This document shows positions 1,852 to 63,346 of a stretch of DNA of 64,000 bases, piece by piece (within the stretch, counting starts at the first letter, position 1; each line of letters opens with the position of its first letter). Position numbers and translations under genes: made by a program. A model generated the notes under the pieces. It made no database searches, was not told the origin of the DNA, and saw nothing but the letters and a program-made list of their open reading frames with translations. The DNA lies in assembly GCA_000146465.1 (NCBI GenBank), contig CP001947.1; one strand, 5' to 3'.

Positions 1852-1870
1852 TTTTAGGGTGCAAATTTTT
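1852..1870 (-). promoter_or_regulatory. AAATTT + CCC promoter motif upstream of RPL19
   Basis: Sense-strand AAAAATTTGCACCCTAAAA directly abuts the ATG. Near-identical blocks precede RPL14 and RPS26. Confidence 0.6.
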
Positions 1871-3584: not shown

Positions 3585-4046
3585 TTATTTCTTTCTTGAA
3601 ACACCCATGGACTTCCCACGTCTTCCATTTGACTTGGTCCTTTGTCCACGGACCTTGAGGCCAACATCGAGTCTGCATGCTCTGATGCGCTTGTTCTTCT
3701 TTCCTCTTTCAATCATCATTCTTAGATCTGCATCGAGTTTTGTACCTATGAGATGGGATGTTGTCCCGTCAACAGGATCCTTCTGATGGTTTAGATAAGA
3801 TTCCGGAATTCCTAGGCTTGCAGGGTCGAGAATTGCATCTGAAATCCTCTTCATCTCCTCCTCAGACATTTCTCCGGCACGCCTCTTCAAATCAATCCCA
3901 AGGCGCTTGCATATGGCTGTCGAGATTCTTATTCCCACACCTCTGATCTTTGTAAGAGCAAAAGCAATTCTCTTTGTCCCGTCAATGTTGGTGTTGTGGA
4001 TACGAACGATGTACTGGACGTCAGCCGGGTCGTAGACATAGTTCAT
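3585..4046 (-). CDS. RPS18: 40S ribosomal protein S18 (uS13)
   Basis: Full-length match to the S18/uS13 family (VRIHNTNIDG...RACRLDVGLKVRGQRTKSNGRRGK). GAAAAATTTAATCCCTTAAATG lies upstream. No intron. Confidence 0.9.
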   Translation of the reverse strand: MNYVYDPADVQYIVRIHNTNIDGTKRIAFALTKIRGVGIRISTAICKRLGIDLKRRAGEMSEEEMKRISDAILDPASLGIPESYLNHQKDPVDGTTSHLIGTKLDADLRMMIERGKKNKRIRACRLDVGLKVRGQRTKSNGRRGKSMGVSRKK

Positions 4047-7504: not shown

Positions 7505-7720
7505 ATGGACAACACCCTGTACACAGCCTTTATAGGAAAGGCTGTTAAGGTCAAGATTTGCGACGGCTCTGAGTTTAGAGGAACATCGGCAGCAATAGAT
7601 GCATATCTCAACATATCCTTGGAGTCTGTATTCTACCTTCAGAAAGGCCAAGAGCCCAGATATTATTCCTCTCTATTCATCAAAGGATCGTATATCGACC
7701 ACATAGCATTGGATGTATGA
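7505..7720 (+). CDS. Sm-like protein (SmF/LSm6-type)
   Basis: 71 aa with Sm1/Sm2 pattern (GK.V.VK...G.EFRG...D.YLNI.L....F...........LFIKGS.I.HIAL). AAAAGCCCTTAATTCGAA precedes the ATG. Confidence 0.7.
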   Translation: MDNTLYTAFIGKAVKVKICDGSEFRGTSAAIDAYLNISLESVFYLQKGQEPRYYSSLFIKGSYIDHIALDV

Positions 7721-14446: not shown

Positions 14447-14797
14447 TCATGCCAGTCCCTTTTCCTTTAGGAGCTCGTCCTCAACTCTTTTCCTCAGCTT
14501 CATCTGGAATCTCTCGAAATCATTGGTTGTATCCTCCTCACTAATGCTTTCTGGAATGAGCTTTCCTATCTCTTCTGGACTAAGATCCTTAATGTCAAAC
14601 GACTCATCCTCAAGGTGGAGATTAGATATAGAGCACATTTCCCTCTCTCCATCCTTCCTCTGGAGAAGTACAAAGGTTGCATCGATGATGCCAACAATTA
14701 TGCCATATGTTTTTCTTTTTTCTTTGAGTGCAGGTGTCACAATCCTTCCCAGCCTTACTGTCTTCTAAAGTTAGCCAAAAAGAAGCTCACTTACCAT
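14447..14797 (-). CDS. RPL14: 60S ribosomal protein L14e, spliced. Exon 2 is 14447..14764; exon 1 is ATG at 14795..14797.
   Basis: The ORF begins at a GTG. Upstream on the minus strand: aaaATG|GTAAGTGAGCTTCTTTTTGGCTAACTTTAG|AAGACA... The spliced product MKTVRLGRIVTPALKEKRKTYGIIVGIID...TNDFERFQMKLRKR matches eL14 (compare yeast ...LTDFERFQVMVLRKQKR). AAAAATTTGCCCTAAAA abuts the ATG. Confidence 0.8.
14765..14794 (-). other. Spliceosomal intron (30 nt) in RPL14, immediately after the ATG
   Basis: GTAAGTGA...GGCTAAC...TTTAG. An in-frame TAG inside it is removed by splicing. Confidence 0.75.
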
Positions 14798-14814
14798 TTT
14801 TAGGGCAAATTTTT
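14798..14814 (-). promoter_or_regulatory. AAATTT + CCC promoter motif upstream of RPL14
   Basis: Sense AAAAATTTGCCCTAAAA directly 5' of the ATG. Confidence 0.6.
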
Positions 14815-14862
14815 GTGTAGATTTAACCGTAGGAAAGTACACTGGTGAATCCCCAGGCACAG

Positions 14863-21532: not shown

Positions 21533-21605
21533 GGCCTCATAGCTCAATGGTTAGAGTGTCGGCCTACGGAGCCGAAGGTTGAGGGTTCGAGTCCCTCTGG
21601 GGTCG
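21533..21605 (+). tRNA. tRNA-Arg (anticodon ACG)
   Basis: 73-nt cloverleaf folded by hand: acceptor GGCCTCA/TGGGGTC, D arm GCTC..GAGT, anticodon stem TCGGC/GCCGA with loop CTACGGA (ACG), T arm GAGGG-TTCGAGT-CCCTC. Confidence 0.85.
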
Positions 21606-24673: not shown

Positions 24674-24800
24674 TCCTCTTGAGTGTATTTTCTTTGGAGA
24701 GTCTTTTCTTCACAATGTTTCAAAGCCCCATCCAATCACATTGTTGTGTCTGGAACAAATGAATTCTGGTTTCTATAAATATGTTTTTTTTCCTAGGCCC

Positions 24801-24997
24801 TACCTCTCAAGCCAATCGGCTTTGATCAAGTGTAGTATCTGTTCTTGCCAGTGTAAGAACTGGCATTATCCGTAAGGATAAATTCATCGAATTTTTGGAT
24901 GGCAGGGTGATGTAGAGGAGCTTGAGCGCTTGCGTTTCGGCCAATCTACTTGAGGTCTGCAGGCTTCTGGGCTGTAGAGCCTAGGAAAAGCCGTTTT
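24801..24997 (+). ncRNA. U2 spliceosomal snRNA
   Basis: GATCAAGTGTAGTATCTGTTCTT at 24823-24845 matches the universally conserved U2 branch-point-interaction region (GAUCAAGUGUAGUAUCUGUUCUU). It is preceded by stem-loop I (AAGCC-AATC-GGCTT) and followed by stem IIa (GCCAGT-GTAAGA-ACTGGC), stem IIb (TTATCC-GTAA-GGATAA), the Sm site AATTTTTGG (24890-24898) and 3' hairpins. TATAAATA lies about 25 nt upstream and a T7 run follows. Ends are approximate. Confidence 0.8.
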
Positions 24998-27594: not shown

Positions 27595-28557
27595 ATGGAT
27601 TTCAATCTTCTTAACCAAAAACTAACAGGGAAAACCGAGGTAGGACTTCTATCCACAGAGGATTATAAGCATATGATCAAAGATGTTTATGACTACATAA
27701 GAGAAAACCATCCCCGTATAGACACATTTCTACTTCATGGAGAGGGTATACTCTGCCCTTTAAAAGCTCGGAGTTTTGAATTTTTCGTGCTTCTTGGAGT
27801 TTATTGCCCTATCCATCCTTTTAAGGACTTCATAAGTATAGAAACACACATGTCTCAGGAAGACAAGAACAATCTGGAGTCGGACTCTCGGTGTATAGTT
27901 TATGATTCAAGCTATGGAGTCCTTTCCTTGAAAGAGTCTGAGGAAATGTATTCCAGAGATGTTCTTGTGGTGACTAGGAATCAAATGTTCTATGACTATT
28001 ACCTCTACAAATATAATGCCAGGTCTTTCTACGAATTAGAAGGGCGAGACCGAATGCAGTACCTTGCATCTAAATGCAACAAAGGAGAGATGGTTCGGGA
28101 TCTGCAGGTATTTGCAATAATATTTACATCGAGGGTCTACGAAGAGTTGGCAAGGTCAATAAGGAAAAAGCTTATTTCCAGGCGTAAGAATGCATACCTC
28201 CTGTTTCTAAAGGATCTTTCGTATGAAAGAATGATAACAATAGAGGGAACCGAATGCATTGTGATTGTTGATTGCCCTTTCTTTGAGTGTTCTCTTGAAA
28301 TGCACATTCCTGTTGTAACGCCTTTTGAAGTTGAGTATGCGCTTTCCAGAGAGTGGAGAAGATTTGATAAAAACTCATTTCGTGTGGAGGATGAGGCTAC
28401 GAGCAACTGCAAAGAACTGGATCTTGTGGAAAGAGCCGGGAAGATTCTACTAAGATCTTCTGGACAAATTGTTCCGTTTTCCTATGAAGAAGAAGACATG
28501 GATATCCATAGCGGAGAAAGTGGGATTGCATGTAGGTACGACCATGAAGGCGTGTGA
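27595..28557 (+). CDS. Diphthamide biosynthesis protein Dph1/Dph2-like (tentative)
   Basis: Segments RCIVYDSSYGVLS and ECIVIVDCPFFECSLEMHIPVVTPFEVEYAL resemble the Dph1/2 blocks ADTSYGACCVD and ...ACPRL.ID...PLLTPYE. ATG 27595, preceded by AATATCCCCGTG. Confidence 0.4.
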   Translation: MDFNLLNQKLTGKTEVGLLSTEDYKHMIKDVYDYIRENHPRIDTFLLHGEGILCPLKARSFEFFVLLGVYCPIHPFKDFISIETHMSQEDKNNLESDSRCIVYDSSYGVLSLKESEEMYSRDVLVVTRNQMFYDYYLYKYNARSFYELEGRDRMQYLASKCNKGEMVRDLQVFAIIFTSRVYEELARSIRKKLISRRKNAYLLFLKDLSYERMITIEGTECIVIVDCPFFECSLEMHIPVVTPFEVEYALSREWRRFDKNSFRVEDEATSNCKELDLVERAGKILLRSSGQIVPFSYEEEDMDIHSGESGIACRYDHEGV

Positions 28558-28687
28558 AGGGCTAACAATAGAGGAGGCTATGGGCAGTATTATTTTTGTA
28601 GTAGGACATGTTTTTTGGATAGAAAAAGGTAGCAAACAAACATATGGTATAATTTAAAGATAAAAACTTTTGGCGATCAAGATTCCA

Positions 28688-40087: not shown

Positions 40088-40145
40088 CAGGGCTTGGAGC
40101 TCCAAAAATTTGTTGCCCAATAAATGGACTTGAAATTGGTCCCTG

Positions 40146-41420
40146 ATGGATTTGGAGAAAGTACGTATTTCTCAAAAGAAGGTTATCAACATTGTATTTG
40201 TCGGCCATGTTGATGCAGGAAAGTCAACGATATGCGGGCAGATCCTTGTTCAAATGGGATTGGTAGATCCAAGGACATTGGAGAAGTATAAGGAGATGTC
40301 TCGAGAACAGAATAGAGAAAGTTGGTATTTGAGCTGGTGTCTGGACATCAATCCTGAAGAAAGAGAGAGGGGAAAGACTACAGAAGTAGGAACGGCATCG
40401 TTTGAGCTTCCTCACAGAAGAATAAATATACTAGACGCACCGGGGCATAACCAGTTTGTATTTGAGATGATAAATGGGGCCAACCGAGCGGATGTGGGGA
40501 TACTGGTTATATCTGCAAGGATAAACGAGTTTGAGGCGGGGTTTGAAAAGGGAGGTCAGACTAGAGAACACATCTTTTTGTTAAAGGCCGGAAGTGTCCA
40601 AAGGTTGATTGTACTAGTTAATAAGATGGATGATCCAAGTGTGGGATGGAACAAGAGTAGGTTCGATGAGATCAAGGACAAAGTCTCGGCATTTGTTAGA
40701 AGGATGTTTCCTGTCCCTGTATTTATTCCTGTTAGTGGATTTACTGGAGAATACATCAAGGACAAAGGATCATGCCCATGGTACGATGGGGAATCTTTTC
40801 TTTCGGAGCTCGACAAGATAACAATCCCAAGAAGATCGGATGTGCCTTTGGCAATTACTGTTACAGAAAAGGTAAAGCTAATGGGAATGACGATTTTGTA
40901 CGGGAAGGTTGAATGCGGAAAGGTAACTCCCGGGATGCCAATAAAAATCCTGCCACACAATACAAAGAACTTCATTTCGTCTATAATGGATGATGAAGAT
41001 GTTGAAATTGAGGAAGGGAATCCAGGAGATGTTGTGAAACTGAAGCTAAAGGAGGATCCAGATGATGTATCAGTTGGAACTAAAATACTAGATCTCAACA
41101 ACATGGATTACAGATCTACACAGGAATTTACATGTGGATTAAACATACTCGACGTCGATACAATAATAAGCTCTGGGTATACATGTATTCTTCATGTAGG
41201 AATTGCTACCGTTCAGTGCAAAATAAAAGAAATAAGGGACATCAATAACAAGAAGATCAGATTCTGCCGCCATGGAAGTAAGGTTCTTGCAAAGATAGTG
41301 GTTTCATCTCCTATCTGCGTTTTTCATGGTAACAAGGATGAAGAAGAAAGACAGAGATTTGCACTGAGGCTCGAGAGTAAAACCATTGCTGTAGGTGTAA
41401 TAAGAACCGTAAAAGAATAA
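40146..41420 (+). CDS. Translational GTPase of the eRF3/Hbs1 (EF1A-like) family
   Basis: GHVDAGKST, DAPGH, NKMD GTPase motifs plus beta-barrel domains II/III. No N-terminal extension. Resembles eRF3 (Sup35 C-domain) or Hbs1; it cannot be discriminated by eye. CCCTG immediately precedes the ATG. Confidence 0.7.
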   Translation: MDLEKVRISQKKVINIVFVGHVDAGKSTICGQILVQMGLVDPRTLEKYKEMSREQNRESWYLSWCLDINPEERERGKTTEVGTASFELPHRRINILDAPGHNQFVFEMINGANRADVGILVISARINEFEAGFEKGGQTREHIFLLKAGSVQRLIVLVNKMDDPSVGWNKSRFDEIKDKVSAFVRRMFPVPVFIPVSGFTGEYIKDKGSCPWYDGESFLSELDKITIPRRSDVPLAITVTEKVKLMGMTILYGKVECGKVTPGMPIKILPHNTKNFISSIMDDEDVEIEEGNPGDVVKLKLKEDPDDVSVGTKILDLNNMDYRSTQEFTCGLNILDVDTIISSGYTCILHVGIATVQCKIKEIRDINNKKIRFCRHGSKVLAKIVVSSPICVFHGNKDEEERQRFALRLESKTIAVGVIRTVKE

Positions 41421-41838: not shown

Positions 41839-41858
41839 TCTTAAGGGCAAAAATTTTC
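41839..41858 (-). promoter_or_regulatory. AAATTT + CCC promoter motif upstream of RPS26
   Basis: Sense AAATTTTTGCCCTTAAGA directly 5' of the ATG. Confidence 0.6.
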
Positions 41859-42025
41859 GAGTCAATGAACTTTGCCATTCGCAGGTTTGATCAAGTGCAG
41901 AATTCTGTTCCACCAGCCATTCCATTCTTAAAGACGGAAGAGAAATGATCCAATTCTATTTTAGTTCTTTAACTTTTAAATAAGGTACGTACTTACCCCA
42001 AACAATAACAGAACCTTGCATTTGG

Positions 42026-57662: not shown

Positions 57663-57734
57663 GGTTGCGTGGTGTAATGGTTATCACTTCAGACTCTGAA
57701 TCTGACAATCTGAGTTCGAATCTCGGCGCGACCA
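57663..57734 (+). tRNA. tRNA-Gln (anticodon CTG)
   Basis: 72-nt cloverleaf: acceptor GGTTGCG/CGCGACC, anticodon stem TCAGA/TCTGA with loop CTCTGAA, T arm CTGAG-TTCGAAT-CTCGG, discriminator A. Confidence 0.8.
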
Positions 57735-61569: not shown

Positions 61570-62292
61570 ATGCAGTTGGTATGGATATTCATTTTGTTTG
61601 ATATATTGTTTACTTCTGCGATTGAAGAAGTAAAAAAAGCATGGGAAAAAGGTATGTCCCGTGAGCTAAATAGCTCGGAAGTCAAGAGGCTAGAAGAAGA
61701 ACTTGGGAATGTTGCAGGGATGGATATGAATGGTTTGATTCCATTGATCTTTCATGAAAACGAGGTTATTGTGTCACCTGTTACTAAATACAGGGATATC
61801 GAAGATAGTAAAAGAAAATATGTCGAGAACATTATCGAAAGACTTCCAAGCCTAGCATGGGAGTCGATGGTGGGCATCTATGTCCCAAAACACGCTGATT
61901 GGATCTGGAAGTTAATGAATGATATCTTCTTCAAAGGAAAATACCGTGACAATTTTGATGTTCTTGATACGTACCGAGGAGGGAAATCAAAAAGGCTTGA
62001 GCCGAGGTTAGTGGATCTGATTATGAACATATTCAAAAGAAATGCTGAAATGTTGAAGGACTTTGGAGAAAGTCTTTCTAATGAAGCAAAAAAGAAGATG
62101 GGAGAGATATCAAAGAACATGGATAGCAAGAAACGAGAGAAAGAGGAGGAGATATTAACCAAGGTCCAAATATATGGAAAGAGTCTGTGCACCAAATCAA
62201 AAAAAGAACAAATAATAAAAGCACAGAAAATAGTGTGTGATGCATGCGTGTATCTTTGGGAGAGAGAAAGACAGAACAAGCTTCCTTCTTAA
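61570..62292 (+). CDS. Hypothetical protein with N-terminal signal-peptide-like segment (240 aa)
   Basis: MQLVWIFILFDILFTSAIE hydrophobic leader. CACGCCCTAGACAG precedes the ATG. K/E-rich C-terminus. Confidence 0.45.
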   Translation: MQLVWIFILFDILFTSAIEEVKKAWEKGMSRELNSSEVKRLEEELGNVAGMDMNGLIPLIFHENEVIVSPVTKYRDIEDSKRKYVENIIERLPSLAWESMVGIYVPKHADWIWKLMNDIFFKGKYRDNFDVLDTYRGGKSKRLEPRLVDLIMNIFKRNAEMLKDFGESLSNEAKKKMGEISKNMDSKKREKEEEILTKVQIYGKSLCTKSKKEQIIKAQKIVCDACVYLWERERQNKLPS

Positions 62293-62320
62293 AATTTACC
62301 TGAGAAACTTGGAGTTTAGT

Positions 62321-63346
62321 ATGATGGGACTAAGTCAAGATGAGACCGAACCGTTATTTCACTACATAAGCCACGAAATCCTAGTAAATACGCCTGAGAA
62401 GTTTAGAAAGGAAGTTGTAGGAGAGTTAATCCAACTAGCTCTCCTAAAGAATGAAGAAATTCCCCCAGAGCATGCCAATATGATTATAGAGGAAGTCATT
62501 AAAAGAAAAAATGATGAAATGAAGGAAGAAGCAAGGAAGATAAAAAAACAGGAGGAAGAAAGACACCGATATGAAGAGGAGCTGATAAGAGAGGAAGAGA
62601 AAGAAAAAAGAGAATATCTAAGGTCTAAAAAAGAAGTAAAAAAGGTAAAAAAAAATAATAAGACGAAGAAAGAAGTAAAGAAAGAACAAGCTGAAGAAGA
62701 GGTTCTCGAAGGGGCTTCTAACTATGCGAAGAATAAAGATAGGAGTGTCGTACATTTCTACAAAATTCACAAGAGGGTCTTTCGATGGATGATGGACACT
62801 CAGAATATCAAAAGAGAATTAGATGCCGGGAGCGAAGAAAAATGGAAAAAAAGAAGCATTAAAGATATAAAGAAACAAAAAGTGGTACACGACATAATAG
62901 AAGTTACGAAGATACTCAAGAAGGATTACTCCGACAAGTTTTTCATAGATACTGAAAGTTATCTCAAAAATGGTAGTAAAAGACGGGGGAAAATAGCAGT
63001 TGGAATGCTTGAAAACGAAGGAAGTAAAAAACTGGGAATAGTAGAGGTTGGGATTTTTGAAGACAGAAATGGAAGAGATGTTATTTATCATTTAATGTTC
63101 AAATCCATAAACTCAGAAAATATAGAAAAAGTCGTAAATTCCGCATTGGAGAAGATGGATAGCATAGACGAAATAAATATCTTGGATGATCCTTCAAACC
63201 TAAAAGGATTCAATTATTCAAAGAATATACGCTCAGAGACTATAGAAAAGGAAAAGCATATTAAAATAGTATGGAGGGATCCCAAGGAGATTTCTATAAT
63301 AATAAAGAGTCTCACAATATTTCACAAGCCATTCGGAATACAATAG
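62321..63346 (+). CDS. Hypothetical K/E-rich coiled-coil protein (about 341 aa)
   Basis: The track start is a GTG inside the previous gene. First ATG is at 62321 (MMGLSQDE...), with AAAATTT about 30 nt upstream. Highly charged low-complexity middle. Confidence 0.4.
   Translation: MMGLSQDETEPLFHYISHEILVNTPEKFRKEVVGELIQLALLKNEEIPPEHANMIIEEVIKRKNDEMKEEARKIKKQEEERHRYEEELIREEEKEKREYLRSKKEVKKVKKNNKTKKEVKKEQAEEEVLEGASNYAKNKDRSVVHFYKIHKRVFRWMMDTQNIKRELDAGSEEKWKKRSIKDIKKQKVVHDIIEVTKILKKDYSDKFFIDTESYLKNGSKRRGKIAVGMLENEGSKKLGIVEVGIFEDRNGRDVIYHLMFKSINSENIEKVVNSALEKMDSIDEINILDDPSNLKGFNYSKNIRSETIEKEKHIKIVWRDPKEISIIIKSLTIFHKPFGIQ

Follow-up and report, generated by a model that had tools for sequence, protein, structure and literature searches.

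The short introns of Encephalitozoon cuniculi, about 25 nt long, reside mainly in genes for ribosomal proteins, where most begin in the codon that follows the ATG (PMC6349667); this 5'-biased class goes back to Katinka 2001, Lee et al. 2010 and Grisdale et al. 2013, as summarised in PMC6349667 and PMC3629993. RNA-seq in E. cuniculi found every annotated intron to be spliced, yet for 30 of 37 introns fewer than 50% of transcripts had lost the intron, and for 22 fewer than 20%, levels that were read as the product of an inefficient, reduced spliceosome and that for some introns differed between time points (PMC3629993). The eL14 gene ECU06_1215 appears in the table of Grisdale et al. with an expression of about 90-115 FPKM (PMC3629993). 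For one predicted 27-nt ribosomal-protein intron of E. cuniculi, 5' RACE showed no splicing (PMC2803860), and whole microsporidian lineages have lost all their introns (PMC6349667). The ribosomal-protein genes carry AAATTT-like and CCC-like signals upstream and have 5' UTRs of less than 7 nt (PMC2803860). For E. intestinalis, the literature searched yielded no RNA-seq study on splicing.

We analysed a 64-kb window, that is, the whole stretch of DNA under study, in which the genes for the ribosomal proteins eL14, eS26 and eL19 each carry an intron at the start codon. With a probability of about 0.93, sequence comparison identifies these three as members of the short Encephalitozoon class of ordinary U2-type (major-spliceosome) introns, placed at the extreme 5' end of their genes. 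The basis for this assignment is the anatomy of the introns, the exact match of the spliced products to annotated proteins, the conservation of position and signals across species, and the presence of a U2 snRNA gene in the window.

The three introns share one layout: GTAAGTGA at the start codon, then CTAA(C/T), then AG. All three lie on the minus strand. Their coordinates (Table 1) and their sizes of 29-33 nt are exactly those reported by the first-pass annotation, which had also placed them after (eL14, eS26) or inside (eL19) the ATG and had read GTAAGTGA at the start of each; both features are seen in the sequence.

Table 1. Introns, exons, upstream signals and RNA genes located in the window.
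Feature	Position	Strand	Description
eL19 upstream signal	1852..1869	-	AAAATTT-GCACCCT-AAAA
eL19 exon 1	1851-1850	-	AT alone; exon 2 supplies G of ATG
eL19 intron	1849-1821	-	29 nt, phase 2 within start codon (AT/G); GTAAGTGATGGATCATTTCTAATTTGAAG
eL19 exon 2 + stop codon	1307..1820	-	starts G TCG AAC GAG
uS13 upstream signal	4063-4047	-	AAAATTT..CCCTTAA
eL14 upstream signal	14798..14813	-	AAAATTT-GCCCT-AAAA (AAATTT-like + CCC-like)
eL14 exon 1	14797-14795	-	ATG alone
eL14 intron	14794-14765	-	30 nt, phase 0 after codon 1; GTAAGTGAGCTTCTTTTTGGCTAACTTTAG
eL14 exon 2 + stop codon	14447..14764	-	starts AAG ACA GTA AGG
tRNA-Arg(ACG)	21533-21605	+	Rfam + ARAGORN
U2 snRNA gene	24800-24992	+	Rfam RF00004, full-length, 83.5 bits; carries universal GAUCAAGUGUAGUAUCUGUUCUU
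eS26 upstream signal	41839..41857	-	AAAATTTTT-GCCCT-TAAGA
eS26 exon 1	41838-41836	-	ATG alone
eS26 intron	41835-41803	-	33 nt, phase 0 after codon 1; GTAAGTGATAGGCGAAGCATTCTAATTTTATAG
eS26 exon 2 + stop codon	41482..41802	-	starts ACA GTT AAA AGA
tRNA-Gln(CTG)	57663-57734	+	Rfam + ARAGORN

All three introns have GT...AG boundaries, and in all three the acceptor is the first AG past the branch site. The 3' parts read CTAAC-TTT-AG in eL14, CTAAT-TTTAT-AG in eS26 and CTAAT-TTGA-AG in eL19. An earlier estimate that the CTAAC or CTAAT lies 6-9 nt before the 3' AG was roughly right; measured from the presumed branch A to the 3' junction, the distances are 6, 8 and 7 nt for eL14, eS26 and eL19, respectively. 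The start codon of eL19 is completed twice over, by the intron's first G in the pre-mRNA and by the first G of exon 2 in the mRNA.

In each gene the unspliced frame closes within the intron. For eL19 it consists of a single codon, since the RNA reads ATG TAA and the stop is the TAA inside GTAAGT. The eL14 frame spans 8 codons (MVSELLFG-stop-L-stop); here the in-frame TAG noted in the first-pass annotation is present as the acceptor, but it is preceded by a TAA inside CTAAC, which is the first stop. The eS26 frame runs for 11 codons and is closed by the acceptor TAG. As the 30- and 33-nt introns are multiples of three, length alone cannot force splicing; the in-frame stops alone do so. Open reading frame prediction recovered only truncated GTG- or TTG-started pieces at eL14, eS26 and eL19 (97, 90 and 162 aa), and eL14 was indeed visible to it only as a GTG-started fragment of 97 aa (14447-14740), as had been remarked at the outset. 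Splicing would give the junction k-mers CCCTAAAAATGAAGACAGTAAGG (eL14), CCCTTAAGAATGACAGTTAAAAG (eS26) and CACCCTAAAAATGTCGAACGAGG (eL19), and yield proteins of 106, 107 and 171 aa whose coding sequences end at 14447, 41482 and 1307.

By exact-sequence look-up at NCBI, these spliced products are identical to AHL30120.1 (Eint_061145), ADM11746.1 (40S ribosomal protein S26) and ADM11708.1 (60S ribosomal protein L19) of E. intestinalis ATCC 50506. All three introns are therefore already annotated with precisely these boundaries, and the Eint_06 locus tag points to E. intestinalis chromosome VI as the source of the window. Domain and structure searches agree with the gene names. The eS26 product scores 129.8 bits with Pfam Ribosomal_S26e (cut-off 27), its residues 1-103 corresponding to positions 1-101 of the profile, and aligns from residue 1 with eS26 of 6RM3, 6ZU5 and many other eukaryotes in the PDB. 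The eL19 product matches the N- and C-terminal domains of Ribosomal_L19e with 77.3 and 108.5 bits (cut-off 25), its residues 5-54 corresponding to positions 3-52 of the N-terminal profile, and aligns over residues 1-171 with chain M9 of 7QEP (E = 6e-98). For eL14, Pfam L14e alone is too weak (E = 0.09, below cut-off); the label, correctly given as RPL14 in the first-pass annotation, is settled by ribosome structures, because a PDB sequence search aligns residues 1-106 with residues 1-106 of 7QEP chain M4 (ECU06_1215; E = 5e-53) and also recovers the eL14 chains of 6RM3 (7e-29) and 6ZU5 (9e-19).

The likeness to the E. cuniculi introns is close. It covers size (22-76 nt overall, typically about 25-33 nt), GT-AG boundaries, a strict GTAAGT, a CTAAY near the AG, a position within or immediately behind the start codon, and ribosomal-protein hosts, and the introns of ECU06_1215 (eL14), eS26 and eL19 occupy the same positions; the two species differ only in interior sequence and in the eL19 intron, which is 2 nt shorter here than in E. 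cuniculi and E. hellem. The expectation that the three introns belong with the microsporidian introns found at the 5' ends of ribosomal-protein genes is borne out by the published descriptions (PMC6349667, PMC3629993), by the orthologues, by the identical annotated proteins and by the alignment of the spliced products, from their first residue, with ribosomal-protein chains of solved microsporidian ribosomes. The roughly 76-nt introns of the same organisms share the spliceosome and the GT-AG boundaries, but their branch site is extended, they contain a conserved internal stem-loop, and about 80% of them is spliced out (PMC6349667), whereas the three described here fall into the short, poorly spliced class. 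In Saccharomyces cerevisiae, too, introns are concentrated in ribosomal-protein genes and lie near the 5' end, with strict signals (GUAUGU and UACUAAC in yeast) and an identical U2 GUAGUA box. Its introns, however, are hundreds of nucleotides long and efficiently spliced, with a branch-to-AG distance usually above 10 nt, while those of E. intestinalis measure 29-33 nt in their entirety, have the branch A 6-8 nt from the junction and carry a metazoan-like GUAAGU at the 5' site.

We compared orthologous loci for eL14 and eL19 in E. cuniculi, E. hellem and Ordospora colligata, and for eS26 in E. cuniculi, E. hellem and E. romaleae. Every orthologous locus fetched from these four species has an intron at the same position. 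The eL14 intron reads GTAAGTGTGCTTAGTCTTACTAACTTCTAG in E. cuniculi (30 nt), GTAAGTGAATATCTCCTTGGCTAACTTTAG in E. hellem (30 nt) and GTATGTGAATTCAATGCGCTAATTTAAG in O. colligata (28 nt). The eS26 intron is 33 nt long in all four Encephalitozoon species, E. intestinalis included, with an invariant GTAAGTG and an invariant TCTAATTTT(A/G)TAG; the eL19 intron retains an invariant CTAATTTGAAG at lengths of 29, 31, 31 and 26 nt in E. intestinalis, E. cuniculi, E. hellem and O. colligata, respectively. Subtracting the coding sequence from the gene range gives 30, 33 and 31 nt for eL14, eS26 and eL19 in E. cuniculi, and the same values in E. hellem.

Mean pairwise identity amounted to 0.35-0.64 for the intron interior, as against 0.80-1.0 for the 5' splice site and 0.68-1.0 for the segment between branch site and AG; the first 30 nt of exon 2 gave 0.76-0.84. 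The low signal values of 0.80 and 0.68 reflect columns shifted by MAFFT, the motifs being intact by eye. Length differences between orthologous introns in eL14 and eL19 are non-multiples of three. Conserved signals, an interior that evolves fast and orthologues that differ in length by 2-5 nt form the pattern of a true intron and not that of a coding segment. Two distant microsporidian contigs from read-archive assemblies (L012 and L013, from SRR31023090 and SRR29026035) encode eL14 (44% identity) and eL19 (50% identity) without an intron, with AAATTT-ACCC directly before the ATG in both. Thus, the introns are common to the Encephalitozoon/Ordospora clade and absent from at least some other lineages. 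The automatic gene call for the eL19 of L013 begins about 25 codons too far upstream.

Two further gene models came to light in the comparison. In O. colligata GCA_052575955.1 (L005, 1424-1501), the current model of OCOL_000771 is a hypothetical protein of 90 aa that begins at an internal Met. The locus nevertheless reads ATG followed by GTATGTGA...CTAAT..AAG and then the conserved eL14 N-terminus, a layout which implies that the first exon and the intron were overlooked in that annotation. The eS26 model of E. cuniculi GB-M1, CAD25505.1 (105 aa, MRRNHGR..., used as chain D6 in 7QEP; L006, 1001-1075), would require an acceptor AG located 9 nt downstream of that of EcunIII-L (108 aa) and E. intestinalis. 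Because the N-terminus of eukaryotic eS26 is conserved, we favour the proximal AG, and CAD25505.1 probably lacks three residues.

The window also holds a part of the splicing machinery. A U2 snRNA gene lies between two protein-coding genes, and its GUAGUA box (24832-24837) complements the CUAAY branch sites: with GGCUAAC (eL14) or UUCUAAU (eS26, eL19) it can form four Watson-Crick pairs and one G-U around a bulged A. Encephalitozoon U1 snRNA, that of E. intestinalis included, is reported to carry ACUUACC (PMC5499648). Compared with this published sequence (the U1 gene lies outside the window), G/GUAAGU of eL14 and eS26 is a 7-nt complement and U/GUAAGU of eL19 a 6-nt complement. A gene for a 71-aa LSm/Sm-domain protein, likely a snRNP core component, is located at 7505-7720 (+).

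These elements suggest the following course of events. Transcription would begin a few bases before the ATG and downstream of the AAATTT/CCC promoter signal, as in E. cuniculi. The 5' splice site, (G)GUAAGU, would then be recognised through pairing with the 5' ACUUACC of U1, and the CUAAY branch site through pairing with the GUAGUA box of U2, which leaves the branch adenosine bulged. The first AG, 6-8 nt downstream, would serve as acceptor; with ATG (or AT) thereby fused to codon 2, each protein would regain its conserved N-terminus. RNA left unspliced would be non-productive, offering ORFs of 1, 8 or 11 codons: the stop falls in the 5' splice site in eL19, in the branch site in eL14 and in the acceptor in eS26. 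That splicing does occur in E. intestinalis, that its efficiency is low and that the 5' UTR is very short, we infer from work on E. cuniculi.

In the fourth ribosomal-protein gene of the window, uS13 (S18; minus strand, 3585-4046; 121 bits with Pfam S13), the reading frame runs unbroken from the ATG and there is no intron. The composite AAA(A/T)TTT-N0-5-CCCT-N1-8-ATG occurs in the window only at the four ribosomal-protein genes. Since uS13 shares this upstream signal and is nonetheless intron-free, an intron is not general to ribosomal-protein genes here. The sole AAAATTT-N-CCC copy in the window away from ribosomal-protein genes (40105-40146, plus strand) lies upstream of a gene for an EF-Tu-family GTPase (40146-41420). 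Past that signal, the first ATG (40124) lies in a different frame from the gene; the 29-codon ORF that begins there (MDLKLVPDG...) extends across the annotated start at 40146 (MDLEKVR...) and might represent an upstream ORF. Alternatively, transcription may start further downstream.

The introns, if real, might also have been retained because they serve a function. Inefficient splicing at a cap-proximal 5' splice site would then set or tune the output of ribosomal proteins, with the retained form a dead-end mRNA bearing an AUG-stop or a mini-ORF. Position and signals have indeed been kept across Encephalitozoon and Ordospora, whose genomes are under strong reduction, each of the three genes has a stop codon built into a splicing signal, and some E. 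cuniculi introns combine low splicing with the time-point differences mentioned above (PMC3629993). Nevertheless, we consider such a function unlikely. Under the same promoter signal, uS13 manages without an intron, and the published view attributes low splicing to an inefficient, reduced spliceosome (PMC3629993). Moreover, the intron-less eL14 and eL19 genes of the two more distant microsporidians, together with the lineages free of all introns (PMC6349667), indicate that the introns are dispensable. A more specific version, in which the start-codon introns are not just relics but form a conserved gate on ribosomal-protein synthesis and splicing competes with cap-dependent translation at a 5' splice site no more than about 10 nt from the cap, the retained RNA presenting an AUG-stop (eL19) or a mini-ORF (eL14, eS26), seems slightly more doubtful still.

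Alternatively, the segments might never be removed, so that each protein would begin at a downstream AUG or at a non-AUG codon such as GTG. The E. cuniculi intron found unspliced by 5' RACE (PMC2803860) and the generally low splicing levels of that species (PMC3629993) speak for this idea, as does the fact that prokaryote-style gene callers produce the 97-aa and 162-aa fragments at these loci. However, the next in-frame AUG corresponds to residue 44 of eL14 and to residue 52 of eL19, and a start there would delete the conserved N-terminal domain. From the acceptor up to that AUG, the DNA shows the conservation of a coding sequence, and its translation aligns with residues 2 onward of ribosomal proteins in solved ribosomes. 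Furthermore, the splice signals are conserved above the neighbouring coding sequence, the interior between them is unconserved and bears indels of 2-5 nt, and all annotated E. cuniculi introns have been confirmed by RNA-seq (PMC3629993). We therefore regard pseudo-introns as very improbable. Continuous cDNA through these segments, which had been put forward as a refutation, would not refute the introns, because most E. cuniculi transcripts of most intron-containing genes keep their intron (PMC3629993).

True introns are also indicated by where the signals stand in the window. GTAAGTGA occurs three times on both strands of the 64 kb, always at the 5' end of one of the three introns, a count that is in itself unremarkable (1.66 expected; at least 3 in 26 of 100 shuffles). 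The looser GTAAGT..CTAAY..AG likewise has three matches, at the same three sites, with about 1.1 expected. The non-random part is the placement: every match adjoins the ATG of a ribosomal-protein gene. Accidental co-occurrence of the GTAAGTGA, CTAAY and AG strings beside three start codons, with which both counts, lying within the shuffle range, would agree, is effectively refuted already by cross-species conservation, since the same arrangement recurs in four other species, and also has against it that all matches lie 0-1 nt from a start codon, in three of the four ribosomal-protein genes of the 64 kb, and that removal restores exactly the annotated proteins.

A scan of the window with a relaxed pattern (GT[AG][ATG]GT ... 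[ACT]T[AG]A[CT] ... AG, up to 80 nt) returned 29 candidates, and beyond the three introns none follows an ATG or joins open frames, in keeping with the initial impression that no other gene in the window shows the pattern. Two candidates were considered individually and rejected. One is a 41-nt candidate (GTAAGT...ACTAAAATAG) that opens with a minus-strand GTAAGT at 41996, in the intergenic region between eS26 and CDC50. Orthologues have GTATGC, GTATGT and GTATAT in place of this GTAAGT, with neither a conserved branch site nor a conserved AG; what is conserved, TTGTTTGGGGTA, corresponds in reverse complement to the CCC signal that belongs to the divergently oriented CDC50. The other, GTAGGT...GCTAAC..AG at 28532-28571 (+), spans the stop of the ORF 27595-28557, and its splicing would only replace the last 8 residues by an immediate stop.

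Elsewhere in the window, besides the two tRNA genes, a gene at 62240-63346 (+) encodes DUF1609 and DUF3654 domains. It belongs to an Encephalitozoon family that we take to be typical of subtelomeric regions, which suggests that the window runs toward a chromosome end. The GC content falls to 0.36 in the last 4 kb.

In conclusion, the introns of eL14, eS26 and eL19 are genuine and canonical; they are already annotated in GenBank, and their class has already been published. For annotation, the case illustrates that a reader of the sequence alone can recover one- or two-nucleotide first exons, which ORF finders miss; eL14 is truncated by prokaryote-style callers and in one recent Ordospora annotation. 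If the introns did act as a gate, spliceosome activity would set ribosome output in a cell without most other regulators. For the biology of the organism, the findings add nothing beyond published work on Encephalitozoon: these are textbook examples of minimal, signal-dense introns surviving in a heavily reduced eukaryotic genome, and their persistence at the start codons of ribosomal-protein genes is an already recognised question.
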